A stretch of 64,000 nt of DNA from contig JAKIVC010000002.1 in assembly GCA_021647245.1 (NCBI GenBank), positions 64,184 through 128,183 on the forward strand, read 5' to 3'. Within the stretch, counting starts at the first letter, position 1, and each line of letters begins with the position of its first letter. A program made the translations under genes and the position numbers. The notes below the pieces were generated by a model. That model had not been told where the DNA came from. It searched no databases and worked only from the letters and a program-made list of their open reading frames with translations. Source of the stretch: Gammaproteobacteria bacterium (lineage in GTDB: Bacteria > Pseudomonadota > Gammaproteobacteria > RBG-16-57-12). Shown piece by piece: positions 2,925 to 50,772 of this stretch.

Positions 2925-3452
2925 TTAAGCGGCTATGTTCATGAATGCCTGTGATTGCGCCAGCTTTGGCAGGCTTAGCACATGGTACTCTTGTGAGTCG
3001 TCCATAAAACCTGCTGTCAGGTAGGGTACTAATTTTGGGTCATTCGAGGCGTGATTTTCGACCTTTTTTGTCTGGTCGAGATGCCTGAGGCCGTGAACCT
3101 CGTCGACCAGCAACCCCGCCATCAGTCCCGACTGGTTAATGACCAGTATACGGCTGTTTTTTTGGGCGGTAGGTGCGCGTAAATCGAGAAATGCGGCGAG
3201 ATCAATGATGGTGATTAAGCTTCCTCGCACATTGGCTACACCTCTCACCCATGGCTTAACACCAGGCAGCAGAGAAATATGAGGGCAGGGTGCCACCTCC
3301 TGTATCTCGGAAAGAGCGGATATTAGGTTGATTTTGCCAAAGCGGTAGCTGATACCGTGCCAGATTTTCCGTGCCTTATCGGGCTGTGGTAATGGGGTGG
3401 CATTTTCGTGAGCTCGCGCTGCAATTTCTTGTAGTAATTGAAAAAAATTCAT
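2925..3452 (-). CDS. pilI: CheW-like coupling protein (PilI-like).
   Basis: CheW domain motifs (VKPWVRGVANVRGSLITIIDLAAFL), 175 aa. It is translationally coupled to the upstream response regulator by a 4-nt overlap. Confidence 0.85.
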   Translation of the reverse strand: MNFFQLLQEIAARAHENATPLPQPDKARKIWHGISYRFGKINLISALSEIQEVAPCPHISLLPGVKPWVRGVANVRGSLITIIDLAAFLDLRAPTAQKNSRILVINQSGLMAGLLVDEVHGLRHLDQTKKVENHASNDPKLVPYLTAGFMDDSQEYHVLSLPKLAQSQAFMNIAA

Positions 3453-10422: not shown

Positions 10423-10925
10423 GAGAAAATTTTGAGGTAACCACCCTGCTAGTGCAGATGGGCGAACAACTACAGGCACTCCTGAAGAAAAACGGGATTA
10501 GCGAAGCCAAGATGATTGGGATATACAGTGGTGGCGTCTGGGTAGCAGAACCACTGCACCGGCAGCTGGGTCTGGAGAGTCCGCTGGGTTGCCTCAACAT
10601 CTCCTTCTACCGGGATGACTTCACCCAGGTGGGCATGCACCCCGAGGTAAAGCCTTCGAACTTGCCTTTCGGCATCGATGGTGAAAACCTGATTTTGGTG
10701 GATGATGTTCTCTATACCGGACGAACGATTCGAGCCGCGTTGAACGAGATATTTGATTATGGCCGACCCGCATCGGTAACCTTAGTGGTGTTGGCGGATC
10801 GAAATGGCCGTGAGCTACCCATTCAGGCCGATGTGGTGGGCGTTAAGCTTGATCTGGACAGTCATGAACAGGTTAAGTTGAGTGGCCCCCAAAAACTCTC
10901 CCTGAATATTATCGAGTCCTTATGA
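10419..10925 (+). CDS. pyrR: Bifunctional pyr operon regulator / uracil phosphoribosyltransferase PyrR.
   Basis: PRTase motif [18 protein letters not shown]. 168 aa. Confidence 0.9.
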
Positions 10926-13770: not shown

Positions 13771-14988
13771 CTCATCAGGGTTGAGCAATACGTAATCTGT
13801 CTGCTGCTTTTTTTTGGGTTCTTTCTCTTTAGGCTCACTCTCTGTATCCTCTTGTTGCTGCTCCGTTATGTTCCAGTCGCGCTCGTTTTCATCCCTATCG
13901 CCATCATGGTCAAGCTTAATCATTAAACGTAACTGATTAGCGGAGTCCGCATGGCGCAGCGCATCTTCATAGGTGATATCACCCGCGTCGTAAAGATCAT
14001 AAAGTGCCTGGTCAAAGGTCTGCATACCCCTATTTTTGGATTTCCCCATCACCTCTTTTATTTTGGCAATCTCACCTTTTTGAATGAGATCCGAGACGAA
14101 GGGTGTGCCGATCAGAATCTCCAGAGCGGCGCACCGACTATTGCCATCAACGCGGGTAATCAGCTGCTGGGCGATGATTGCTTTTAGGTTGAGTGAAAGA
14201 TCCAGCAGTATCTGCTCACGCCGCTCAAAGGGGAAGAAGTTGATAATGCGCTCGAGTGACTGGTTGGCATTATTAGCATGTAGCGTAGCGAGGCAGAGGT
14301 GCCCAGTTTCAGCAAAGGTAAGCGCGTGCTCCATGGTTTCGCGGGTACGAATTTCACCAATCAAAATAACATCGGGTGCTTGTCGCAGGGTGTTTTTAAG
14401 TGCGATGCCATAGCTTTCAGTATCAACACCCACTTCGCGCTGGGTGATGATACAGCCATCGTGTTGGTGAATATATTCGATGGGATCCTCAATGGAGATG
14501 ATATGACCATGCGAGTTACGGTTGCGGTGGCCGATCATGGCAGCCAGTGAGGTGGATTTTCCTGAGCCGGTTCCACCCACCACTAAAATTAAGCCACGCT
14601 TCTCCATTACCATCTCATTGAGCTGAAGAGGAAGCTTGAGCGCTTCTATTGTTGGAATTACCGTCTCAATCTTGCGTAACACCATGCCGATTTTCTGTTT
14701 TTGACAGAAGACACTGACACGAAAGCGCCCGACATTAGGTCGGTGGATGGCAAAGTTAGCCTCCTGTGTCTCATCAAACTGGCGGCGTTGCTCTGCATTC
14801 ATTACGCTATAGACCACATCCGTGGCCTGCTGCTGGCTGAGTGGGTTGGGTGAGACTGGGACATTTCGACCATTGATTTTTAGCGTGGGTGGCAAGTCTG
14901 CGGATACAAACATATCCGAGGCTTGTCTGCGCATCATCAGCTTGAGCAGGTAGTCAAAATTTTCAATCGATTGGGTGTTTTTTGTCAC
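13765..14988 (-). CDS. pilU: Type IV pilus retraction ATPase PilU, with an unusual acidic/Lys-rich C-terminal tail. The GTG start overlaps the pilT stop.
   Basis: Walker A GGTGSGKSTSLAAM and PilT/PilU family motifs. The likely GTG start in TAGTG overlaps the pilT stop at 14986-14988. The C-terminal ~50 aa are KEKEPKKKQQ/E-rich. Confidence 0.85.
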   Translation of the reverse strand: MTKNTQSIENFDYLLKLMMRRQASDMFVSADLPPTLKINGRNVPVSPNPLSQQQATDVVYSVMNAEQRRQFDETQEANFAIHRPNVGRFRVSVFCQKQKIGMVLRKIETVIPTIEALKLPLQLNEMVMEKRGLILVVGGTGSGKSTSLAAMIGHRNRNSHGHIISIEDPIEYIHQHDGCIITQREVGVDTESYGIALKNTLRQAPDVILIGEIRTRETMEHALTFAETGHLCLATLHANNANQSLERIINFFPFERREQILLDLSLNLKAIIAQQLITRVDGNSRCAALEILIGTPFVSDLIQKGEIAKIKEVMGKSKNRGMQTFDQALYDLYDAGDITYEDALRHADSANQLRLMIKLDHDGDRDENERDWNITEQQQEDTESEPKEKEPKKKQQTDYVLLNPDES

Positions 14989-16025
14989 TAGCGGAATAGA
15001 TCCTTGTTGACGGCTTTTGTGGCAGCATCCTGCTTGCTGACCAAACCTTTTTGTACCAGGTTTTGTAGGCACTGATCCAGTGTTTGCATGCCAATCGCCT
15101 GGCTGGTTTGAAGTACCGAGTACATCTGCGGCACCTTCGCTTCGCGAATAAGATTACGAATTGCGGGCGTACCAATCATTATTTCGTGGGCCGCTATGCG
15201 CCCGCCACCCATCTTTTTCAGCAGTGATTGGGAGATAACCGCTTGCAGTGACTCAGAGAGCATCGCCCGCACCATCTCTTTTTCACCACCAGGAAAGACA
15301 TCGATAATCCGGTCGATGGTTTTCGCCGCTGAGCTGGTGTGGAGCGTGCCAAATACCAAGTGCCCGGTTTCAGCGGCTGAAAGCGCTAAACCGATGGTTT
15401 CAGGGTCACGCATTTCACCCACCAGAATAACATCAGGGTCTTCACGTAGCGCAGAGCGCAGTGACTCGGAAAAGCCAAGGGTGTCGCGATGAACTTCGCG
15501 TTGATTGATGAGGCATTTTTTTGATTCGTGCACAAATTCTATCGGGTCTTCAATGGTTAGAATATGGCCAAACTCATTCTCATTTTTGTCATTTACCATG
15601 GCGGCGAGGGTGGTGGATTTACCCGAGCCGGTAGGGCCCGTTACCAGCACCAGGCCGCGTGGATATTGTGCAATCCTCTTGAATATTTCGGGGGCACCCA
15701 GATCGTCCAGCGTGAGTATTTTTGAAGGGATGGTTCGGAATACCGCACCGGCTCCCCGGTTTTGATTGAAAGCATTGACACGAAAACGCGCTAAGTTGGG
15801 TATTTCGAAGGAGAAATCAGTCTCAAAGAACTCCTCGAAATCTTTGCGCTGTTTATCATTCATGATGTCATAAATCAGGCTCTGCACCGTTTTGTGGTCG
15901 AGTGCTGGCACATTAATTCGGCGAATATCACCGTCAACACGAATCATCGGCGGCTCACCCGCAGAGAGGTGTAGATCAGATGCGTTATTTTTCACACCAA
16001 AAGCGAGCAGTTCTGTAATGTCCAT
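14988..16025 (-). CDS. pilT: Type IV pilus twitching motility ATPase PilT.
   Basis: MDITELLAFGVKNNASDLHLSAGEPPMIRVDGDIRRI... plus GPTGSGKSTTLAAM. 345 aa. Confidence 0.95.
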   Translation of the reverse strand: MDITELLAFGVKNNASDLHLSAGEPPMIRVDGDIRRINVPALDHKTVQSLIYDIMNDKQRKDFEEFFETDFSFEIPNLARFRVNAFNQNRGAGAVFRTIPSKILTLDDLGAPEIFKRIAQYPRGLVLVTGPTGSGKSTTLAAMVNDKNENEFGHILTIEDPIEFVHESKKCLINQREVHRDTLGFSESLRSALREDPDVILVGEMRDPETIGLALSAAETGHLVFGTLHTSSAAKTIDRIIDVFPGGEKEMVRAMLSESLQAVISQSLLKKMGGGRIAAHEIMIGTPAIRNLIREAKVPQMYSVLQTSQAIGMQTLDQCLQNLVQKGLVSKQDAATKAVNKDLFR

Positions 16026-16175
16026 CTGTTATTCCCAATAATAAATTGTACCGAAGTCATCTTACCACCCTATGGTGTGGGTTGGTAAGCGGTTGATTAT
16101 TTGATGGTTGAGCATTGATTATAGCCGTGTATAGCGGCATTCTAGAAGAAAAACTTAGCCCCTGTAAGGCCTTTG

Positions 16176-16272
16176 TTCTCATTCCCAGATAGGGTCACGC
16201 ATACTGTACAAGCTCTTGATTCCACAGTGAAACCAAACGCTTACACACTAACCTGGGGATGAGGGCTTTACG
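16176..16272 (+). repeat. Short variant of intergenic repeat family R1.
   Basis: The core attcccagatagggtcacgcatactgtacaagctcttgattccacagtgaaac matches the copies at 37862, 41453 and 50554. The right end cctggggatgaggg is an inverted copy of the left end. Confidence 0.6.
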
Positions 16273-20544: not shown

Positions 20545-20554
20545 CCCCTCCCTT

Positions 20555-20588
20555 CCGCAGTAGACTCACCCTAAGTCCGACAGCCTCC
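20555..20588 (+). repeat. Partial copy (one arm) of repeat family R2.
   Basis: ccgcagtagactcaccctaagtccgacagcctcc matches the reverse complement of 33600-33633 at 32 of 34 positions. Confidence 0.5.
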
Positions 20589-20662
20589 TGGCGTGTGGAT
20601 AGCGCTCTCGCAATGAAGGGGGGCAATCGGTTATATTGTGCATAACTTAATCTATAAGTGAT

Positions 20663-32374: not shown

Positions 32375-33598
32375 ATGACGGTATGGGGAAATATGATGAG
32401 CTTTTTTGCTAAAAAAATGAAGTGGGGTGTTTGTGTCATTAGCGGCGCTACCCTAATGGTTGCAGGCTCGGCAGCATCGGCATCTGGAATCACTGAAGCG
32501 ATTAAAGGGGGTGAGGTCAGCGGTGATTTTCGTCTGCGAATGGAGACGGTGACTCAAGATAACGCCCTAAATGATGCAAATGCACTCACATTGCGCAGTC
32601 GGCTGGGTTATCGAACAGCGGACTACAAGGGATTGACTGGTTTTATGGAGTTTGAAAATGTTACCGCGCTGAATGATGATTATGAGCCGATGCCCAGTAA
32701 CCCGGCCAAAACAGAGTCAGTGGTGGCTGATCCGGAAGGCACCGAGGTTAATCAGCTCTATTTGAAGTATGTTTCGGGTGGTCACGCGATTACCGCAGGT
32801 CGCCAGCGGGTTATTCTGGATAATGCCCGTTTTGTGGGCAACGTTGGGTGGCGCCAAAATGAGCAGACATTTAATGCCATTGTCTTTACGGTAGATTCCG
32901 TTGCGGATACCTCACTTGTTTATGCTTACGTGGACGGGGTTAATACAATCCTCGGGGGTGAGTACGATACTTCCGCGTATATCTTTAACGCATCATATAC
33001 TGGCTTTAGTGCCGGAAAAATAACCGGTTACTCCTATGTTATTGAGCAGGATGATGTGCCTTCGGCCTCAAATTCAATCCTGGGTTTACGGTTTTCCGGG
33101 GCGACAGATGTAGCAGAAGCCAAGGTAAAATATACGCTTGAGTATGCGAAGCAGTCGGATTATGCCGAGGGCACTAATATTGATGCCCAATACCTGTTGG
33201 CTGAATTAGGCGCAGAATTCAGTGGTGTGGGTATCAAGCTGGGCTACGAAGTGTTGGGGGATGGTAAGGGTGCAAATGACGCTTCATTCAGCACGCCCTT
33301 AGCCACGAAACACGCCTTTAATGGCTGGGCAGATGCCTTTTTAACCACGCCTACCGATGGCCTGCAGGATATTTATCTCTCCGTTACCACCCAAATTGAA
33401 GGGGTAAAGCTGTTAGCCGTCTACCACGACTACTCCGCAGATACCGGCAGTGCCGACCATGGCTCGGAGATCAACCTGCTTGCCGCTAAAAAGTTTGCAG
33501 GCCACTACACTGCGCTACTAAAGTATGCAGATTACTCTGCGGGTGATAGTGGTACGGATACCAGAAAGCTGTGGTTGATGGGGCAGATGAAATTTTAG
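32375..33598 (+). CDS. Outer-membrane beta-barrel porin-like protein of unknown specificity.
   Basis: Signal peptide, C-terminal ...MGQMKF terminal Phe, and beta-strand periodicity. 407 aa. Confidence 0.55.
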   Translation: MTVWGNMMSFFAKKMKWGVCVISGATLMVAGSAASASGITEAIKGGEVSGDFRLRMETVTQDNALNDANALTLRSRLGYRTADYKGLTGFMEFENVTALNDDYEPMPSNPAKTESVVADPEGTEVNQLYLKYVSGGHAITAGRQRVILDNARFVGNVGWRQNEQTFNAIVFTVDSVADTSLVYAYVDGVNTILGGEYDTSAYIFNASYTGFSAGKITGYSYVIEQDDVPSASNSILGLRFSGATDVAEAKVKYTLEYAKQSDYAEGTNIDAQYLLAELGAEFSGVGIKLGYEVLGDGKGANDASFSTPLATKHAFNGWADAFLTTPTDGLQDIYLSVTTQIEGVKLLAVYHDYSADTGSADHGSEINLLAAKKFAGHYTALLKYADYSAGDSGTDTRKLWLMGQMKF

Positions 33599-33752
33599 GA
33601 GGAGGTCGGACTTAGGGTGAATCTACTGCGGAAAAGCCATTCTGGCCCATTTCTCTGATCCTTTTCGTTGAATATGCCCAATATTCGCCTCAAACGACCA
33701 AAAAAATGGACTCAAAATGGCTTTCCCTCGCTACGATTACCTAAGCCCGACA
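33598..33752. repeat. Repeat family R2. It is a MITE-like element with ~45-bp terminal inverted repeats.
   Basis: The left arm ggaggaggtcggacttagggtgaatctactgcggaaaagccatt and the right arm aaaatggctttccctcgctacgattacctaagcccgacagcctcctagcc are inverse complements with mismatches. A partial copy lies at 20555. Confidence 0.55.
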
Positions 33753-33875: not shown

Positions 33876-34967
33876 GTGAATGAGATGTTCCGATATTTAG
33901 TAGTGGCTGCGCTGTTTCCTATGTTGTCCGGCTGTGGTGGAGATACCCCGGCATCATCCAGTGAACCAGAGCGTGTTGAAAAAATAGTCGCTCGAGAGAG
34001 TAACCGTAGCTGCCTTGCTCCGGCGGATGCTATCGATACCGCGACCCGGCTCTCCACCACAGGCTGTTTTACAGATGTTAGCAACCAGATAATGGCGGGT
34101 GGGGTGATCCCCTACACCGTCAATAGCGTGTTGTGGTCCGATGGTGAGAGCAAAGGGCGTTATTTTGCAGTGCCGGATGGCACGACCATCAGCTTAACGG
34201 TGGACGAATCTTCAATTGTTGCCAGTAATGGCACTAAAAATGGTGATTTCAACTTTCCGGTAGGCGCGGTGGTGATCAAACACTTCTATAGTGGCAGCCG
34301 TATCGTTGAGACCCGCTTGCTGATGAACCATGCCAATGATGGTTGGGGTGGCTACGCCTATCAGTGGGATGAGTCACAGAGTGACGGTACCCTGCTGGTT
34401 GGCTCAAATAGCATCACCACACCGGTCAGCCACTATTTCCCGAGCCGCGAAGAGTGTATGGAGTGCCATACGGATGCCGCTCGGGTGTTATTAGGGCCGG
34501 ATACTCTACAACTCAATTACCCCCTTTACTATACGGATGGCACAGAAGAGAACTATCTCGATGCTTTGGTTCGATTAAATTACCTCTCGGCACCGTTGCT
34601 GGCGGATTATAAGGTGGATCGGCTCTATGCAATTGACGATAGCGACGCACCATTAGAGCAGCGAGCCAGAAGCTATTTGCACAGTAACTGCTCGGGCTGT
34701 CACCGCACTGGCGCACCGCAAGGTGGCTTTGATCTTCGTTACACCTCATCGTTTGTAAACAATGTTTGTGGTATCGCTGCAGCAGAGCCGACCAGCCCCA
34801 CCGGAGGGTTGCTGATCGACCCCGGCAATGCTGATAACGCCACTATTCAGCAGCGACTCGCCTCTATGGGGAGCATTCAAATGCCACCTATCGGGCGAGA
34901 GCAAACCGACCCCGAAGCGGTTCAAGTGATGGCTGATTGGATCAATAGCCTGCAGGGCTGTGATTAA
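33876..34967 (+). CDS. Dihaem c-type cytochrome lipoprotein with a Planctomycete-type cytochrome c (PSCyt1-like) C-terminal domain.
   Basis: Lipobox LSGC. Two CxxCH motifs (CMECH, CSGCH). CHRTGAPQGGFDLRY...SIQMPP fits the PSCyt1 pattern. Confidence 0.6.
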   Translation: MNEMFRYLVVAALFPMLSGCGGDTPASSSEPERVEKIVARESNRSCLAPADAIDTATRLSTTGCFTDVSNQIMAGGVIPYTVNSVLWSDGESKGRYFAVPDGTTISLTVDESSIVASNGTKNGDFNFPVGAVVIKHFYSGSRIVETRLLMNHANDGWGGYAYQWDESQSDGTLLVGSNSITTPVSHYFPSREECMECHTDAARVLLGPDTLQLNYPLYYTDGTEENYLDALVRLNYLSAPLLADYKVDRLYAIDDSDAPLEQRARSYLHSNCSGCHRTGAPQGGFDLRYTSSFVNNVCGIAAAEPTSPTGGLLIDPGNADNATIQQRLASMGSIQMPPIGREQTDPEAVQVMADWINSLQGCD

Positions 34968-37612
34968 CCCAGCAACTTTTTTAACTCCGGCACACATGAG
35001 CCACAATTTGTGCCGGCATTCAGATAGCTACCAATCTCTTCCACACTTTTCAAGCCATGTTTTTGGATCGCCTCTCGAATACTGTTTTCACCTACCTTGA
35101 AACAGGCGCAGACCACACGCCCGGTATCAACCTGGCCGACCGGTGGCTTTCCAGTGAGCAGTGCACGGCGCTCATCATTATCCAGCACCTCTTTTTCAAA
35201 AAGTGAGGCGAGCCAACTGCGGGGTGGCAGCGCTTTGTCCGGGGCGATGAAAATACAGCTCTCCACTTGATCTCCTGTCATACGAATACCTCGATAGGTG
35301 TTTGCGCCGTTATCCAGCAGTTCGACCCAGTTGACATCATTATTTGAGGTGCAAAGATAACTTCTCGCCCATGCGGGGAGATCTTTGGAGCGTTGCTCAC
35401 CCGCCACTTCGTATCGATAGTGGTTATTGCCGGTTGCCCTTGCCCAGTAACAGACCCCTTCCAGTTTTAATGCGCGGCGCGAAAGGATAAAGCCGTGCCA
35501 TGCGGTTTGGTAAGGCTTAAGCTGCACCGGCGTATGTTTAAACTCAGGTTGGCCCGAAAGCGGGTCTACCGCAGGATTGACCACTGCGGAGGCTTTTCCC
35601 CTGCTGGAAAACTGCTCGCTCCAGTGCATCGGCGCAAACAATTCACCACGGCGCTGGCCGTTGTCCAAGCGTACTCGCCCGATCATCTCACCCCAGCGGC
35701 TGGTCACCGTGGCTAACGCATCCTCATTGATAGAGAGCGCCACGGCATCATCAGGATGAATGGCGATGTAGGGTTCGGGGCTATGCTCAGATAGCCGTGG
35801 CGCCTTTCCAGTGCGGGTCATGGTGTGCCACTGGTCGCGTACCCGCCCAGTATTCAGAATAAAGGGAAAGCTGTCACAGGGCATGTGTGCGGGTAGCCGT
35901 GGCTCAATGGCTTGAAACTGTGCCTTGCCTGATGGCGTGAAAAAATGGCCATCACTAAACATGCGAGCACTCCCCGCAGGCTGCTGTTGATTCACTGGCC
36001 ACTGGATGGGTGATAGCTGGTGGTAACTCTGTTGAGTTTGACTGCTCAGTGCCGAAAGGTCGAAGTCACGCTCTCCGTTGTTTCTATATCCGGAAAGAGC
36101 CGCGTGTTCGTTAAATATTTCGTAAGGGTGTTGATAATTAAAACCATCGCTATACCCCATACGCTTGGCCACCTCAGAGATTATCCACCAATCGGGTTTT
36201 GCTTCACCGGCAGCCGCCTGAAAAGCTCTCTGGCGTGAGATACGTCGTTCAGAATTGGTAACGGTGCCGCTCTTCTCCCCCCAGCCTTGGGCCGGTAATA
36301 AAATATTGGCACGGAGGGTGGTGTCGGTCTGCTTAACGCAATCGGAGACCACTACAAACTCGCACTGTTTGATCGCTTCTGCAACGTGGTCTGCATTGGG
36401 CATGCTGGCTGCGGGGTTGGTGGCCATGATCCATACAGCCTTGATCTTTCCCTTGGCAATATCATCAAACATATCTACCGCCTTGCGGCCGCTTTGTTTA
36501 GGAATGGCGGGTGAGCCCCAGAAGCTTTGTACTAAAGTACGGTGCGCGGGGTTTTTTATCTCCATATGAGCGGCCAACATATTGGCCAACCCGCCTACTT
36601 CGCGCCCTCCCATGGCGTTTGGTTGGCCAGTAAAAGAGAAGGGGCCCATGCCGGGGCGACCGATACGCCCGGTGGCCAGATGGCAGTTGATAATGGCATT
36701 GACCTTATCCGAACCACTGGTTGATTGATTAATGCCCTGAGAGTAGACAGTGACCACCCGCTCTGTGCGGGAGAAGAGTCGATAAAACGCTTGAACCACA
36801 GACACTTCGAGGCCACAGCGTAGTGCCACGGAGTCGACGCTAGGCGCGGTTTTTTCTGCCATGCGGAGTGCGGTCTCAAACCCCTCGGTATAAGCATTCA
36901 AATAACTGTGGTTTATTTCACCATCCCGCTGCAGATAACTTAGCAAGCCATTAAACAGTACGGTATCGGTACCAGAACGCAGGGGCAGGTGGAGGTCGGC
37001 AATGTCACAGCTGGGGGTCTCTCTGGGGTCGATTACTACCACCATCAGATCGGGGTTGACCCGCTTTGCCTGGTTGATTCGCTGAAACAGTACCGGATGA
37101 CACCAGGCTGCATTGGTGCCGGCCAGTACAATCAGCTTTGCTCGTTCCAGATCTTCATAACAGCAGGGCACGGTGTCTGACCCAAAAGCGCGTTTATGGC
37201 CTGTGACAGAAGAGGACATGCAGAGCCGCGAGTTGGTATCAATATTGGCTGTGCCGATATAACCTTTGATCAGCTTATTGGCGACATAGTAATCTTCAGT
37301 CAAGAGTTGCCCCGACACATAAAAAGCGACCGCGTCAGGGCCGTGCTGCTCAACGGTTGCTAAAAACCTCTCCGCGACCTCCCCAAGCGCCTGATCCCAG
37401 CTGGCGGGTATTCCCTCAATTTCGGGCTGGAGCAGCCGCCCCTCCAGTCCCAAGGTTTCGCCCAACGCCGACCCTTTGGAGCAGAGCTTGCCAAAATTAG
37501 CGGGGTGCAGCGGGTCACCTTGGACTGTGTAGCCGCCATCAGCATTCGCTGCTACCAGCACTCCGCAGCCAACACCACAATAGGGGCAGGTTGTTTTTGT
37601 CATCTTGGACAT
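34964..37612 (-). CDS. nasA: Assimilatory nitrate reductase catalytic subunit with a C-terminal BFD-like [2Fe-2S] domain.
   Basis: N-terminal CPYCGVGCG 4Fe-4S motif, molybdopterin oxidoreductase domains, and a C-terminal CACFKV...CGSC. 882 aa. Confidence 0.9.
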   Translation of the reverse strand: MSKMTKTTCPYCGVGCGVLVAANADGGYTVQGDPLHPANFGKLCSKGSALGETLGLEGRLLQPEIEGIPASWDQALGEVAERFLATVEQHGPDAVAFYVSGQLLTEDYYVANKLIKGYIGTANIDTNSRLCMSSSVTGHKRAFGSDTVPCCYEDLERAKLIVLAGTNAAWCHPVLFQRINQAKRVNPDLMVVVIDPRETPSCDIADLHLPLRSGTDTVLFNGLLSYLQRDGEINHSYLNAYTEGFETALRMAEKTAPSVDSVALRCGLEVSVVQAFYRLFSRTERVVTVYSQGINQSTSGSDKVNAIINCHLATGRIGRPGMGPFSFTGQPNAMGGREVGGLANMLAAHMEIKNPAHRTLVQSFWGSPAIPKQSGRKAVDMFDDIAKGKIKAVWIMATNPAASMPNADHVAEAIKQCEFVVVSDCVKQTDTTLRANILLPAQGWGEKSGTVTNSERRISRQRAFQAAAGEAKPDWWIISEVAKRMGYSDGFNYQHPYEIFNEHAALSGYRNNGERDFDLSALSSQTQQSYHQLSPIQWPVNQQQPAGSARMFSDGHFFTPSGKAQFQAIEPRLPAHMPCDSFPFILNTGRVRDQWHTMTRTGKAPRLSEHSPEPYIAIHPDDAVALSINEDALATVTSRWGEMIGRVRLDNGQRRGELFAPMHWSEQFSSRGKASAVVNPAVDPLSGQPEFKHTPVQLKPYQTAWHGFILSRRALKLEGVCYWARATGNNHYRYEVAGEQRSKDLPAWARSYLCTSNNDVNWVELLDNGANTYRGIRMTGDQVESCIFIAPDKALPPRSWLASLFEKEVLDNDERRALLTGKPPVGQVDTGRVVCACFKVGENSIREAIQKHGLKSVEEIGSYLNAGTNCGSCVPELKKLLG

Positions 37613-37861: not shown

Positions 37862-38015
37862 GCAGGCTATAGAAGAGTCTGCTTATACTGCGATAGTGCG
37901 CTTTTAACTGTGGTGAGTACTTGGCTCCTACCCTATCTTCATGTAGGAGTGTAAAGCACTGTGGAATCAATCTCTTGCACAGTATACGCACTTCTATTTG
38001 AGGGTTAGGGTTTTA
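37862..38015 (-). repeat. Copy of intergenic repeat family R1.
   Basis: The reverse complement ccctaaccctcaaatagaagtgcgtatactgtgcaagagattgattccacag matches the other copies. Confidence 0.6.
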
Positions 38016-39241: not shown

Positions 39242-40189
39242 CTACTCCGCCAGTTGCAGTATAAACATCTCGACTACAAGCAAGGTACTTAAGAAGGTGG
39301 AAAATAGACTGATGTAGAGTGTTTTGTATTGGTTGTCATACTCTTTTTCGAGGGTATTGCTGAGTTGTTTCATGAGTGAGTTGAGCTGCTTGAAGCTAAG
39401 GCCGATGGCATCACTGGCAATAGCAAAATAGTGATCAGGTTTGATCATAATTTTTTTTGCGCTCAGGAATTCCCTGTCTAGAGTGCTCAAAAACAGCGCA
39501 ATACTTTTCTGGCATTGGGTGAAATCCAACATGTTTTTATCGATTTTTTGATGCCTTAAAATGGTAATTGTCTCATCACATACCAGTGAGGCCTTTTGAT
39601 GAAGATAGCCCAACTTACTCCGGCTTTGTGTATTTAGACGGGCTTGAGTTGCGGCTCCAGTGCCAATTCCCCTTGCCTGACCCAGCACTTCGGTAACAAA
39701 GGGGAGTATGTTGATACCGATCTCCAGCAGTCCATGCAGCTGCTTGTCATCACTGTTGTCCAGCTTGCTCAGGCTGCCGGTATCACTAATTAGATTAAGT
39801 AGTTTTGAGATAATGGCGGTGTGCAGGGAGAAGCTCTCCTCAGCACTGAGTGATGAGAAGTTTTCAGTTACTTTATGCCAGCCCTTCTTAACCTCAAGAT
39901 AACCGGGTGAGCTTGAAAATTCAGGGTAATCGTTACTTATTTTCTGTAGCTGCCGGCCTATTTTTTTTTGGTGCGCATAGCACTTCTCCTTGAAAGCTGA
40001 GTTGCCTTTCAGTAGCGCATTGCTCATGCCGCGATGCTGGGGAATGCTCTCTAGTAACTGGAAAAGCTGGCGGATAACCAATAATCCTGCCTGCCGCCGA
40101 GCTGAAAAACGCCGTTGAACCACCACAGAGCGTAACCACGCCACTGAGATAAAAAATAAAATGAGAGAGACCAGAGTAAGCGTCAGCAT
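39242..40189 (-). CDS. Stand-alone TM-NIT-TM protein: a nitrate/nitrite-sensing (NIT) domain flanked by two transmembrane helices.
   Basis: N-terminal TM, two NIT-type repeats with Q-x-RG motifs ([12 protein letters not shown]; [13 protein letters not shown]), and a C-terminal TM. It starts at an ATG that overlaps the upstream MCP stop (ATGCTGA). Confidence 0.6.
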
Positions 40190-41340
40190 GGTGACTTCTC
40201 TTGTGAACGGGATAACTTGACCAGATAGCCGGCTGTTTCGGATGCCTCTTGGATCACTTCGGTGGTCTGTTGAGCCATCTGATTTATTTTTTCGATATTG
40301 ATGGAGATTTCGCTACTGCTGCTATTCTGCTGGTGAATTGCCAGGCTGATATTTTCCATTGCCGCAACGGTGGATTTCGCCCCTTGTTTAATTGACTGAA
40401 GGGCGTTGTGGGTCGAATCAGAGAGCCCAACACTGTTATTGATGGCGTTGATGATCTGCTCCATACCGTTGCTGACATTCTGCACATCTTGTTGAATAGC
40501 GGATATTTGTTGATTAACTTTGGAGGCCGCCTGCTGGGAGCGTTGCGCCAACTGCCTTACTTCATCAGAAACCACAGAGAAGCCACGGCCATGTTCACCT
40601 GCACGAGCTGCTTCGATGGCTGCATTCAGTGCCAGCAGGTTAGTCTGGTTTGCTATATCATTGATGGTGTCGATGATTGAGCTGATCTCTTGCGAGCGTG
40701 ATAGCAGGCCGTTGATCTGTTCGGTTGATTGATTAATTGAATGAGAGGCCGTCTGGATTTCGGTCGCCATGGTTTTAACAATGTCATCACCTTCAGTCGC
40801 ATAGGTGTCCAACATTTTTGAGGTGCTGTCGGCTTCGTCAGCAAGCCCCGAGATGGTATCGATATTACCGCTTAACTGCTCCATCTCATTTAAAATGCTA
40901 GCCACCGAAGTCTGTTGAATGGTCATCATTTCAGTCGAGTGCCCATTCATTTTTGCTAAATCAAGTGCCGCACTGTGTAGCTCTTCGCTGGCGCTTTTAC
41001 TCTTTTCGTCCAAGCGTTCAACCGCAACCCGCTGCTGATGAAATGCGCTGAATATGGGGTTAAACTCATTCTCTTTATAGCAAGCGGTCTCCCCCTTTGT
41101 CAGGCGGCGTATAGTGTGTAGCTGATAGTGGTGATAAGCAAAAATCAGGTAGAGGGTGATGCTCAGCGTTATGATGACAAGGAGTGTCAGGTCAAATTGC
41201 AGTGCGGGTTCAAGCGTCGGGATAAGATAGAGCAGCGCAGAGGCTAAGGGCAGTACGGTAAGTGATACGATAAAAATCAGTTTTTGGCGTAGTGAGAGTC
41301 GTTCAAAAAGAGCGGTGACGGGTTTGAATAATTGATCCAT
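40183..41340 (-). CDS. Methyl-accepting chemotaxis protein lacking a periplasmic ligand-binding domain (two TMs, a ~10-aa loop, then the signalling domain).
   Basis: TM1 and TM2 are separated by [13 protein letters not shown] signalling domain [34 protein letters not shown]. Confidence 0.8.
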
Positions 41341-41452
41341 TCTGCTATTCCTCGTTTTCCTCGTCTATCAGGTAGCCCAGAATAACATTATGATGCGGGT
41401 TTCGAGTTACTCCGTACTACTACCTATAAGGGGTTTGGAACAAGTGAGGGTA

Positions 41453-41602
41453 ATTCCCCTAATCCCTAGGTAGCAACACGTATGCAGGCCCTTGATTCCA
41501 CAGCAAAGCAAAAAATCGTCACCGAACCTACGGGTGCTACTCCTATTTTTTATTTCACTGTGAAACCGATATCTTACATATCATTACGTATTTTTATCTG
41601 GA
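41453..41602 (+). repeat. Full-length copy of intergenic repeat family R1 (~150 bp).
   Basis: cccctaatccctaggtagcaacacgtatgcaggcccttgattccacagcaaagcaaaaaatcgtcaccgaacctacgggtgctactcctattttttatttcactgtgaaaccgatatcttacat...atctggag is ~85% identical to the reverse complement of 50554-50706. Confidence 0.65.
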
Positions 41603-41751
41603 GTTTATGCTGAGCCTAAACCTACCCAAACTTGTTTAAAATCTCCTTAACGGATAGCGTTCTATGCTTGCAGATCTTTAACATTTTTTTCATGAATGGT
41701 CTTGGGCTGGCCGGCTGGTTTTTGGTGGTTGGCCCCCAAAAATCACTCTGG

Positions 41752-43164
41752 CTACCCCTCTACAAGTTCGCGGGCATACTCTTTTAATGTATCCAGTATG
41801 GCTTTTTCGCTGTCACCGTATTCAGGGGTGGCGCGCAGTTCATTTAGCTCAGCCAGATAGCTGGCTAGATCAAGGCGACTCAGGCGGAATGTTTGCCAGC
41901 GTGCCTGCTCCTCTTCGGTCAAGGTGTCGAGGTAGTTGCGAGCACGCATGCGAAACAGCATTTCGGGCAGGCGGCTATCATCAAAAGGTGGCTCATAGCC
42001 TACCAGCTCTTGCGGGGTCATGGTATGGATCTGTGCCATGCGGGACTTATCGTCCGGGCTAAAAAAACCGCCCCCATAGAGCATCTGGTCGGGGTCGGTT
42101 CGTTTTTCGAACTGGCTCTCCGAGAGCACCTGCTGCACTTTCTTGGCGAGTCCTTTTGCCTCTTGCAGAACGGCCAGGTTTTGGCGGCAGAGGTTAAGGT
42201 CGATGCCATACTTTTTGGCCGCCTTGCCATCGAGGGACATAAATGGGGCAATCACCGGGCATTTGTTTATATGTACCGTTTTTAGTGGGATGCGCTCAAC
42301 CCCCTCGGGTAACTCATCACTGCGAGTAAAGAGGCGCTGGTGGATCTTCTTCGCACTGAGGTTGATTAAATCAGCCGGGTCAACGCTTAGATCGTACACC
42401 ACCACGCCATTTTTGTTGGTGGGGTGCTCGGCAATCGGCACCACTATGGCCATATTTCCTTTCTCTACCGGGTACATGCCCGAAACATGAATTACCGGCT
42501 TCTGCTCACGTAAATCAAGCAGCTTGCTCAATTTGCGCTTGTTACGGTTGTTGTATACGTATTCGAACAGCTTGGGCTGTTTCTCTTTAATGAGCTTGGC
42601 CATGGCGATGGTGGCGTAGACATCAGAGAGCGCATCGTGAGCCGATTCATGTGCGATACCATTTGCTGCGGTAAGGTCTTCTAGTCGGACCGAGGGCCGG
42701 CCCTCTTCGGTGGTGGGCCACTCAATGCCTTCAGGGCGCAATGCGCGGGTCATGCGTACCACATCTAAAAGGTCCCAGCGGCTACAGCCATTTTGCCACT
42801 CCCGTGCGTAGGGGTCCATTAGGTTGCGGTAGAGCGTATAACGGGTAAACTCATCATCAAAGCGCAGGTTGTTATAACCCAGCACGCAGGTATTAGGCTC
42901 GCTAAACTGCTCATTGATCAGGCGGATAAACTCAACCTCAGGCAACCCGGCTTCAAGTGCCATGGGTGGTGTGATACCAGTGATTAAGCAGGAGCTGGGG
43001 CTGGGGAAAAAATCATTGGCAGGCTTACAATAGATCATTAATGGATCGCCAATAATATTGAGATCCTCATCGGTACGCACCCCGCCAAATTGTGCAAGGC
43101 GGTCATTCATTGGGCTGAGGCCAAAGGATTCGTAGTCGTACCAATAGAATGTTTTTTTGCTCAT
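41752..43164 (-). CDS. sbcB: Exodeoxyribonuclease I. The start was set at the internal MSKKTF; the ORF-track N-terminal extension would overlap the upstream gene.
   Basis: FYWYDYESFGLSP...DEDLNIIGDPLMIYCKPANDFFPSP is the Exo I N-terminal DEDD exonuclease domain. Confidence 0.9.
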   Translation of the reverse strand: MSKKTFYWYDYESFGLSPMNDRLAQFGGVRTDEDLNIIGDPLMIYCKPANDFFPSPSSCLITGITPPMALEAGLPEVEFIRLINEQFSEPNTCVLGYNNLRFDDEFTRYTLYRNLMDPYAREWQNGCSRWDLLDVVRMTRALRPEGIEWPTTEEGRPSVRLEDLTAANGIAHESAHDALSDVYATIAMAKLIKEKQPKLFEYVYNNRNKRKLSKLLDLREQKPVIHVSGMYPVEKGNMAIVVPIAEHPTNKNGVVVYDLSVDPADLINLSAKKIHQRLFTRSDELPEGVERIPLKTVHINKCPVIAPFMSLDGKAAKKYGIDLNLCRQNLAVLQEAKGLAKKVQQVLSESQFEKRTDPDQMLYGGGFFSPDDKSRMAQIHTMTPQELVGYEPPFDDSRLPEMLFRMRARNYLDTLTEEEQARWQTFRLSRLDLASYLAELNELRATPEYGDSEKAILDTLKEYARELVEG

Positions 43165-43204
43165 GATCGTCTGCTCTTTAGAATAATTATAACGTGCTGC
43201 AAGG

Positions 43205-43684
43205 TTATCTAGACTCTCTGTTTCTGAAGCCAAGGCGCTGGCTGCTGGGGTCGGCTGGGCGGATCGCGACTTCACAGCTAATCTGACAGCAATGGGTGCC
43301 ATCTGTTCGATAAAAGCCGTAACCAAAGTGTGGGGTATGACTGCCCTTTTCGGCCAGTGCGGCTGCTATCTGTTGCCGTAGCGGTTCGGGAAAATCGAAT
43401 TGTAAAACTAGATCCTCACTGCCTGGGCGTAAAAAATCCAGCTGCAAACGCTTTGTCCACACCGTGTAATCTGGGAAGCCGTTGGCACAAGCCAGTGCCG
43501 CAATCGGATCCGCCAGGGAGGCCATGGCACCGCCAAACAGGGTGCCACCGGGATTAAGGTTTTGTGGCTCCCGCGGCAGCAAAATACGTACCCGCTGCCA
43601 CTGTTCGCTCAGTTCCAACACTTTTATATTCATCGATTTAAACGGTGGATAGCTTTCCAGGCGTTGTGCGGCGTGTTGTGACAC
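43205..43684 (-). CDS. Hotdog-fold thioesterase-like protein (PaaI/YiiD-C-terminal-like).
   Basis: GGTLFGGAMASLADPIAALAC hotdog motif. 159 aa. Specificity is unknown. Confidence 0.55.
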   Translation of the reverse strand: MSQHAAQRLESYPPFKSMNIKVLELSEQWQRVRILLPREPQNLNPGGTLFGGAMASLADPIAALACANGFPDYTVWTKRLQLDFLRPGSEDLVLQFDFPEPLRQQIAAALAEKGSHTPHFGYGFYRTDGTHCCQISCEVAIRPADPSSQRLGFRNRESR

Positions 43685-50527: not shown

Positions 50528-50553
50528 AGAGATTTTTTCAATAAACGGTTAAC

Positions 50554-50706
50554 TCTAGATAGAAGCGCGAGATGATGTGTAAGATACGGGTTTCACAGTG
50601 AAACTAAAAATATTAGTCGCACCCGCAGGTTCGGCGGCTATTTTTTGTTTTACTGTGAAATCAATGACTTGTACAGAATACGTGCTTCTATCTGGGGATT
50701 AGGGGT
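50554..50706 (-). repeat. Full-length copy of intergenic repeat family R1.
   Basis: See the 41453 copy. The ends are agatagaagcGcg and cgTgcttctatct, which are inverted. Confidence 0.65.
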
Positions 50707-50772
50707 TAACTCCAAACTGGCACTTAACAGATGTCTGTGTTAAAAAAAGCAACTAACTTTTTAGAGGATAAA

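Follow-up and report, generated by a model that had tools for sequence, protein, structure and literature searches.

The window, that is, the whole stretch of 64,000 nucleotides of gammaproteobacterial DNA analyzed here, contains four related intergenic segments, found in both orientations and denoted copies A to D. Their relationship, proposed in the initial annotation, was borne out by blastn, by a core pattern and by nhmmer: a 24-nt degenerate core (CTGTRCAAGNNNTTGATTYCACAG), searched with up to 3 mismatches, matched the window at exactly the four copy positions (chance expectation, 0.02), and the nhmmer profile search yielded no fifth copy in the window. The set consists of two long forms (A and B) and two short forms (C and D). 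Throughout, "sense" denotes the better-folding strand of each copy, and the limits given for A, B, C, and D exclude the target duplications.

Copy A (145 nt, positions 41457-41601, sense on the minus strand; detected by blastn and by nhmmer with E 2e-44) lies between sbcB, encoding exonuclease I (41752-43326, minus strand), and an MCP gene (40183-41340, minus strand). The initial annotation described this copy by its location ahead of the MCP gene; the assignment needed correction, exonuclease I being the gene upstream of the copy and the MCP gene the downstream one. Copy B (152 nt, 50553-50704, sense on the plus strand; detected by blastn and nhmmer) comprises a 5' arm (50553-50604), a central module (50605-50647), and a 3' arm (50648-50704); it starts 25 nt past the stop codon of hrpB (50527) and ends 68 nt short of the next start codon (50773). 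Both short forms occupy spacers between divergent genes, copy C (80 nt, 37931-38010, sense on the plus strand; nhmmer 3'-arm profile, E 6e-15) between nasA (34964-37612, minus strand) and a globin gene (start at about 38165, plus strand), and copy D (90 nt, 16176-16265, sense on the minus strand; nhmmer, E 2e-15) between pilT (14988-16025, minus strand) and yggS (plus strand).

Copy C had been delimited previously as 37862-38015, which is about 70 nt too wide. Comparison with relatives identified positions 37862-37930 as native spacer that is conserved where the element is absent, and accordingly, we rejected the interpretation of C as a full-length, diverged family member spanning 37862-38015. 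The native spacer contains CTATAGAAGAG, which is similar to the AGATAGAAGC motif of the element, and this likeness explains the misplaced limits.

The best match among the window copies, between A (41453-41605) and B (50551-50705, opposite strand), shows 77.4% identity over 155 nt (blastn, E 1.5e-30), that is, less than the approximately 85% initially estimated; the identity rises to 80% once the 5' tip is excluded. Copy B resembles C and D over their first 53-60 nt (81% identity over 53 nt, E 2e-9, for C; 78% over 60 nt, E 8e-9, for D). The similarity among the copies extends along the entire element, beyond the TTTCAC palindrome to which it might have been limited.

Two unrelated features of the window deserve mention. 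A second repeat, TTCCGCAGTAGACTCACCCTAAGTCCGACAGCCTCCT, of 37 nt is present at 20553-20589 and 33597-33633, in opposite orientation and with 92% identity; its copies lie within about 10 nt of the 3' ends of a dynamin-like ORF and an Alginate_exp-like ORF, and the similarity stops by about 45 nt. Next to the MCP gene, a NIT-like ORF (39242-40189) is intact (315 aa) in the window and split into two fragments (90 and 76 aa) in L002, a contig of another assembly in which the aligned stretch downstream of hrpB is identical to the window; the difference is either a frameshift or an assembly error.

Anatomy of the repeat

Each copy is a single long imperfect palindrome with the tips 5'-CCCT(A/C/G)ATCCCCAGATAG...CTATCTGGGGATTAGGG-3'. 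A full copy is about 160 bp long, and its halves pair over about 65 base pairs. In their extended form, the tips read 5'-CCCT(A/C/G)ATCCCCAG(A/G)TAG...CTA(T/C)CTGGGGAT(T/C)AGGG-3'; in the alignment of all copies in the sense strand, a full copy starts with CCCT(A/G/C)ATCCCC-AG(A/G)TAG and ends with CTA(T/C)CT-GGGGAT(T/C)AGGG, and in abbreviated notation the tips are CCCTNATCCCC...GGGGATNAGGG. Terminal inverted repeats of the MITE type are present (CCCTNATCCCCAGRTAG / CTAYCTGGGGATNAGGG). Across the 65 pairs in the six long copies, standard pairs occupy 91.5% of the pair cells, a share that drops to 38-49% if the partners are shifted by 1-3 columns, and 7 pairs have changed on both sides.

The short forms C and D (80-90 nt) lack the central ~65 nt, which contain an A-tract, a small G+C hairpin, and a T-tract; the arms are joined at GGTTTCA|CTGTGG. 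The features recognized at the outset, namely, the inverted ends of the short D form, the inverted AGATAGAAGC(G/A)CG motifs of B, and a TTTCAC-N-GTGAAA palindrome, are all present. Overall, the copies span 80-160 nt (259 nt with a nested insert), and no ORF or called gene was found inside any of them.

The two tips differ in their state of preservation. Copies A, B, and G (the latter from a related assembly; see below) each lack 6-9 nt of the sense 5' tip, with CCCTAATCCCC cut to CC, CTCT, or CCCTC; the loss amounts to about 9 nt in A and 7 nt in B, and the deletions map to 41587-41601 (A) and 50553-50556 (B) of the window and to 16821-16828 of contig L010 (G). Of the 3' tips, only that of D deviates from GGGGATNAGGG, which all long copies and C retain unchanged. 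The three deletions differ in length, and A, B, and G are not mutually closest relatives; from the alignment, we read the losses as probable independent small deletions between CCC(T) repeats, with the proviso that three such cases could have arisen by chance.

Copies in other genomes

The family as collected here consists of only eight copies, in four assemblies, every one at a different site. Beyond the window, copies E, F, G, and H occupy non-orthologous sites in three more distantly related assemblies, so that the repeat is not confined to the four loci originally listed: E, with a nested tandem insert of about 2 x 50 nt, resides in a vent-metagenome contig (L005), F and G are in L010 (HrpB 77% identical), and H lies between yggS and proC in L026-L029 (YggS 76% identical). 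The insert in E (L005, about 3300-3400) is a nested ~50-nt tandem duplication (GACGTGCAAGGATGCACTAATACAGCGGTGACAGGATGTCATGGAGCT x2) within one arm and may be part of another small repeat family. In the two closest relatives, a profile search covering about 70 kb detected no copies. Copy B is 85-89% identical to E, F, and H, compared to 80% identity to A in its own genome, indicating that the window insertions came from already diverged source copies; as far as sequence comparison goes, this is better explained by an active family of considerable size than by local duplication.

Scans of broader collections with the 24-nt core returned one true copy overall along with 3-4 chance matches: in the genome collection, a single chance match in a Lewinellaceae coding region, and in the metagenome collection, the true copy in L005 and two chance matches in a coding sequence. 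Two scans of viral contigs gave chance matches only, and BLAST searches of plasmid, phage, and E. coli collections detected no similarity. No Rfam family matched the window at the gathering threshold, and a permissive Rfam search retrieved only generic miRNA-precursor hairpin models, far below the threshold. In the literature searched, the terminal and core sequence strings and the assembly accessions led only to unrelated papers.

Empty sites in close relatives

The HrpB protein of the window is 100% identical to that of an uncultured "Gammaproteobacteria bacterium" MAG, and its further relatives show 93, 88, 79, and 77% identity, one of them coming from a hydrothermal-vent metagenome. For the surroundings of hrpB, the MCP gene, and yggS, we compared the window to the orthologous regions of the relatives. 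None of the four insertions of the window is present at the corresponding position in close relatives (90-95% protein identity). The site of copy B is empty in four relatives (L003, L007, L009, and L010); the 93% and 88% relatives (L003 and L007) have a single GTTAA at this position, reading ...AAACTGTTAAYCCTAAACTGG..., compared to ...AAACGGTTAA (152 nt) GTTAACTCCAAACTGG... in the window, and the other two, which are more distant, likewise lack copy B. The site of copy A is empty in L011 and L012; in L011, where the MCP is 95% identical, it reads GCATAAACT|ACCCTCAC, with AAACT present once and no insert. Copy C is absent from L011, L012, and L013, which retain the window sequence up to about 37930 and again from about 38011. 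Finally, the copy D site is empty in L021, L023, and L026; L023 reads ...CCCTTTG|CGTGAAAG..., with a single CTTTG and without the 90-nt insert. Conserved promoter sequence, an alternative named in the initial annotation, is ruled out by these empty orthologous sites, and, with four of the four window copies missing from relatives that keep the same genes, none of these copies is needed by the host.

Other palindromic sequences were encountered at the same spacers. In the sbcB-MCP spacer of L012 (a 91% relative), some 20 nt away from where copy A is inserted in the window, a different 67-nt palindromic element is present (2007-2073); it has the same tips as copy D (TTCTCATT...ATGAGGG), and judging from this identity, a single enzyme may mobilize both it and the family described here. 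The yggS-proC spacer is 12-21 nt long in the window and in L021; it is the site of copy H in L026 and is filled in L023 by a third palindromic insert of about 150 nt (10719-10869; 38-nt arms, 79% complementary). Small mobile elements seem to favor this spacer.

Target-site duplication

With the copy ends fixed by the tip motifs, the last k bases before each copy were compared to the first k bases after it, for lengths of 2-11. The scan peaks only at k = 5, where 28 of the 40 positions match (70%), against 30% in the null obtained with flanks taken from different copies (P about 2e-6); there is no duplication signal at lengths 2-4 or 6-11. The eight copies contribute 3, 5, 3, 4, 2, 2, 4, and 5 matches out of 5; the weakest cases are E and F, in which the flanking 5-mers share only two of the five positions. 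In A, B, and G, the limits were placed with the 6-9-nt 5'-tip deletions already known; for the five copies with unambiguous ends, 16 of 25 positions match (P 0.0015).

The 5-mers are AT-rich (GTTAA, ATAAT, ATTAA/ATCAA, TAAAG/CAAAG, AAACT/GAATT, TCCTA/TTTTA), and the empty sites carry the 5-mer once. Copy B is flanked by two identical GTTAA sequences (50548-50552 and 50705-50709). In copy A, the 5-mer on the sense-5' side (41602-41606; AGTTT on the plus strand, AAACT in sense) matches the one on the sense-3' side (41452-41456; AATTC on the plus strand, GAATT in sense) at three of five positions. The flanks of C are TCCTA (37926-37930) and TTTTA (38011-38015), and those of D are CTTTG (16171-16175) and CTTTA (16266-16270). 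A longer duplication of 9-11 bp at copy B (GGTTAACTCY) looked convincing because the native CTCC that follows the 5-bp duplication resembles the trimmed 5' tip CTCT; it was rejected given that the eight-copy length scan favors 5 bp only. Site-specific recombination with a TAAY core and target mimicry of the element's end were also considered and became superfluous once the 5-bp model fitted.

Strand asymmetry and gene context

In seven of the eight copies, one strand folds better than the other by 11-27 kcal/mol, the exception being G. For copy B, the predicted folding energies are -70.6 kcal/mol for the sense and -43.5 kcal/mol for the antisense strand (-70.2, z -10, vs -43.5 for a 150-nt stretch), and for copy F, -88 vs -63 kcal/mol. 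All 8 arm mismatches common to at least three of the six long copies are G·U on the sense strand and none is on the antisense strand (p 0.008), compared to 12 G·U-type and 12 A·C-type among the mismatches private to one copy. The bias of the shared mismatches, combined with the lack of bias in the private ones, implies that the hairpin of the founder was one-stranded and that the inserted copies drift regardless of pairing; by this measure, once inserted, a given copy seems to undergo neutral decay.

Five copies (A, B, E, G, and H) are located between tandem genes, and in every one, the sense strand runs the same way as the two flanking genes (one-sided p 0.03); the three sites between divergent genes carry no information in this respect. 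Because A and B are opposite in orientation and only 9 kb apart, orientation tracks transcription, not replication. Four copies (B, E, G, and H) begin 0-25 nt downstream of the stop codon that precedes them, with G directly adjoining it. In the case of H, the element takes the place of the final yggS codons and provides the TAA stop, so that the C-terminus of YggS has been rewritten by the insertion (in L026, the last codons and the stop, at 10698-10702, fall within the CCCTAATCC tip of H).

The central G+C hairpin of copy B (GTCGCACCCGCAGGTTCGGCGGC; 50616-50638, plus strand) is preceded by the A-tract and followed by TATTTTTTGTTTT, with a local folding energy of -7.5 kcal/mol; its counterpart in copy A (41518-41540, minus strand) is degraded (-3.7 kcal/mol), and the hairpin is weak in A and E alike (-3.7 to -3.9 kcal/mol). 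With its U-tract, the central module resembles a terminator, but the stem is only -7.5 kcal/mol, a terminator consensus scan did not flag the module, and the short forms do without it; it was not accepted as a clear terminator. According to the initial annotation, the copies could influence expression or give rise to a small RNA. A consensus scan found no sigma-70-like promoter site inside the window copies.

Arguably, the one-sided folding, the uniformly G·U shared mismatches, the orientation at tandem sites, the proximity of four copies to stop codons, and the succession of A-tract, hairpin, and U-tract might all be taken to mean that the repeat is mainly a host RNA module, that is, a REP-like, strand-specific hairpin that terminates, stabilizes, or processes transcripts at gene ends and is merely spread by transposition. 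We consider this quite unlikely. The four window copies are missing from close relatives with the same genes, copy-specific mutations break and keep pairing in equal numbers (12:12), the central hairpin is weak and escapes the terminator scan, and the short forms dispense with the central module altogether; moreover, the five-of-five orientation amounts to a one-sided p of only 0.03, and there is no matching Rfam family in the window.

Probable mode of transposition and possible parent

No transposase domain was detected in the 30 window ORFs scanned (1-29.6 kb), and no transposase appears in the gene lists of the loci collinear with the window (about 29.8-60.5 kb) or of the other loci of the relatives (362 kb in total, including the window). 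Within the same 362 kb, there is no autonomous element with the same termini, and no Y1 (RAYT/TnpA) domain is present among the window ORFs scanned or in the locus gene lists. We infer that the copies move in trans, by means of a transposase encoded elsewhere in the genome.

IS200/IS605 and RAYT systems insert without target duplication. The 5-bp duplication hence speaks against the repeat being transposed as a single strand, either as an IS200/IS605-derived palindromic element or as a REPIN moved by a RAYT-type Y1 transposase, which we regard as very improbable even though the founder hairpin was strand-specific, no DDE transposase is seen nearby, and a GTAG/ATAG motif is found in the arms close to the tip. 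Furthermore, the flanks vary, without a constant tetra- or pentanucleotide on one side, the opposite orientation of A and B 9 kb apart makes orientation independent of replication direction, and the ~55-nt arms far exceed REP units. Weakest of all, with practically no chance of being correct, is the explanation by conserved palindromic operator or promoter sequences, or by chance similarity confined to the TTTCAC palindrome, as the intergenic, palindrome-containing copies upstream of genes might have suggested: the orthologous spacers of relatives cleanly lack the element, the similarity extends over 80-160 nt, at E values as low as 1e-30, and the sigma-70 consensus scan revealed no promoter-like site inside the copies.

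With regard to the source of the transposase, ISEcp1-type elements of the IS1380 family produce short, 4-5-bp AT-rich duplications. The CCCT...AGGG tips and the 5-bp duplication of the present repeat are IS1380-type features, albeit weak ones that other IS families may share. Members of this family (ISEcp1, ISEnca1, and ISPme1) have inverted repeats that likewise start with CC, and the resemblance is loose, being limited to CCTAA-T-CC over about 14 nt; those of ISEnca1 are CCTAGATTCTACGT / ACGTGGAATTTAGG (PMC9535334). IS1380-family transposases accept imperfect ends (PMC9330008). A transposase gene of the IS1380 type with these tips was not detected in the window or the loci of the relatives, and we put forward this family as a possible parent, a lead only.

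Discussion

The combination of terminal inverted repeats with a 5-bp target duplication points to a MITE specifically, and the repeats combine the small size, lack of coding capacity, inverted tips, fixed-length duplication, and presence/absence polymorphism that characterize MITEs. We conclude that, in all likelihood, they comprise a family of MITEs, that is, non-coding, non-autonomous DNA transposons. The initial annotation spoke of a MITE/REP-type element; the first half of this assignment holds, given the terminal inverted repeats, the 5-bp duplication, the dispersed copies, and the empty sites, and the REP half is not supported.

The anatomy of the copies suggests how such a family would spread. 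A transposase encoded elsewhere would recognize both tips and make 5-bp staggered cuts in AT-rich targets (GTTAA, ATAAT, ATTAA), giving rise to the 5-bp duplication. The four window copies lie between housekeeping genes and are recent: the window lineage gained them after the split from the relatives with 90-95% protein identity, from source copies that had diverged by then. Because gene ends are rich in TAA-containing targets, copies often come to lie 0-25 nt from a stop codon; those near stops are probably co-transcribed, folding into a long RNA hairpin that could plausibly serve as an RNase III site or as a 3'-end barrier. Following insertion, the copies appear to decay neutrally, and nothing points to a requirement for the element on the part of the host.

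One feature of the family is not demanded by plain DDE cut-and-paste, namely, the strand-specific G·U pattern of the founder (8 of 8). The shared G·U pairs on the co-directional strand, together with the three independent 5'-tip losses, raise the prospect of a hairpin that is strand-specific by design, such that spread or retention of the element depends on a single-stranded form. We view this as unlikely; in its possible variants, the RNA hairpin would cap gene 3' ends and be selected at insertion, or a transposition intermediate would fold on one strand. If true, dependence on a single-stranded form would be unusual for an element with a 5-bp target duplication.

As MITEs, these repeats show that transposons have recently been active in an uncultured lineage of gammaproteobacteria with relatives in a hydrothermal-vent metagenome and provide exact insertion markers that tell close strains apart. 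They also flag altered gene 3' ends or upstream regions, such as the yggS stop codon supplied by copy H, and in genome annotation, their hairpins should not be mistaken for regulatory RNAs or promoters.

Among known systems, the closest parallels are the bacterial MITEs, including Correia/NEMIS of Neisseria, RUP of Streptococcus, and IS-derived elements, which are likewise small, non-coding, and multi-copy, possess terminal inverted repeats, generate a target duplication of fixed length, reside in intergenic regions in both orientations, vary in their insertions between close relatives, and can form RNA hairpins when co-transcribed. ERIC/IRU elements (127 bp) are imperfect palindromes of similar size that also occur in transcribed intergenic regions and come in size variants, and the 9-mer AATCCCCAG is common to both; however, it is central in ERIC and located at the tips here, and the host clade differs. 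Membership in ERIC was rejected, given this different layout and the lack of a blastn match for copy B in 5,426 ERIC-carrying E. coli genomes. REP sequences and REPINs with their RAYT are alike in being extragenic hairpin repeats at gene ends with a strand-specific structure, but their units are 20-40 nt long and there is no target duplication, in contrast to the arms of about 55 nt and the 5-bp duplication observed here. Compared to the known MITEs, the present repeats are unrelated in sequence to any entry of the plasmid, phage, E. coli, and Rfam collections and the literature searched, duplicate 5 bp of AT-rich target rather than TA, and consist in their entirety of one 65-bp palindrome. 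The repeats are a new family within a well-known, ordinary class, the only unusual feature being the one-strand G·U bias of the hairpin.
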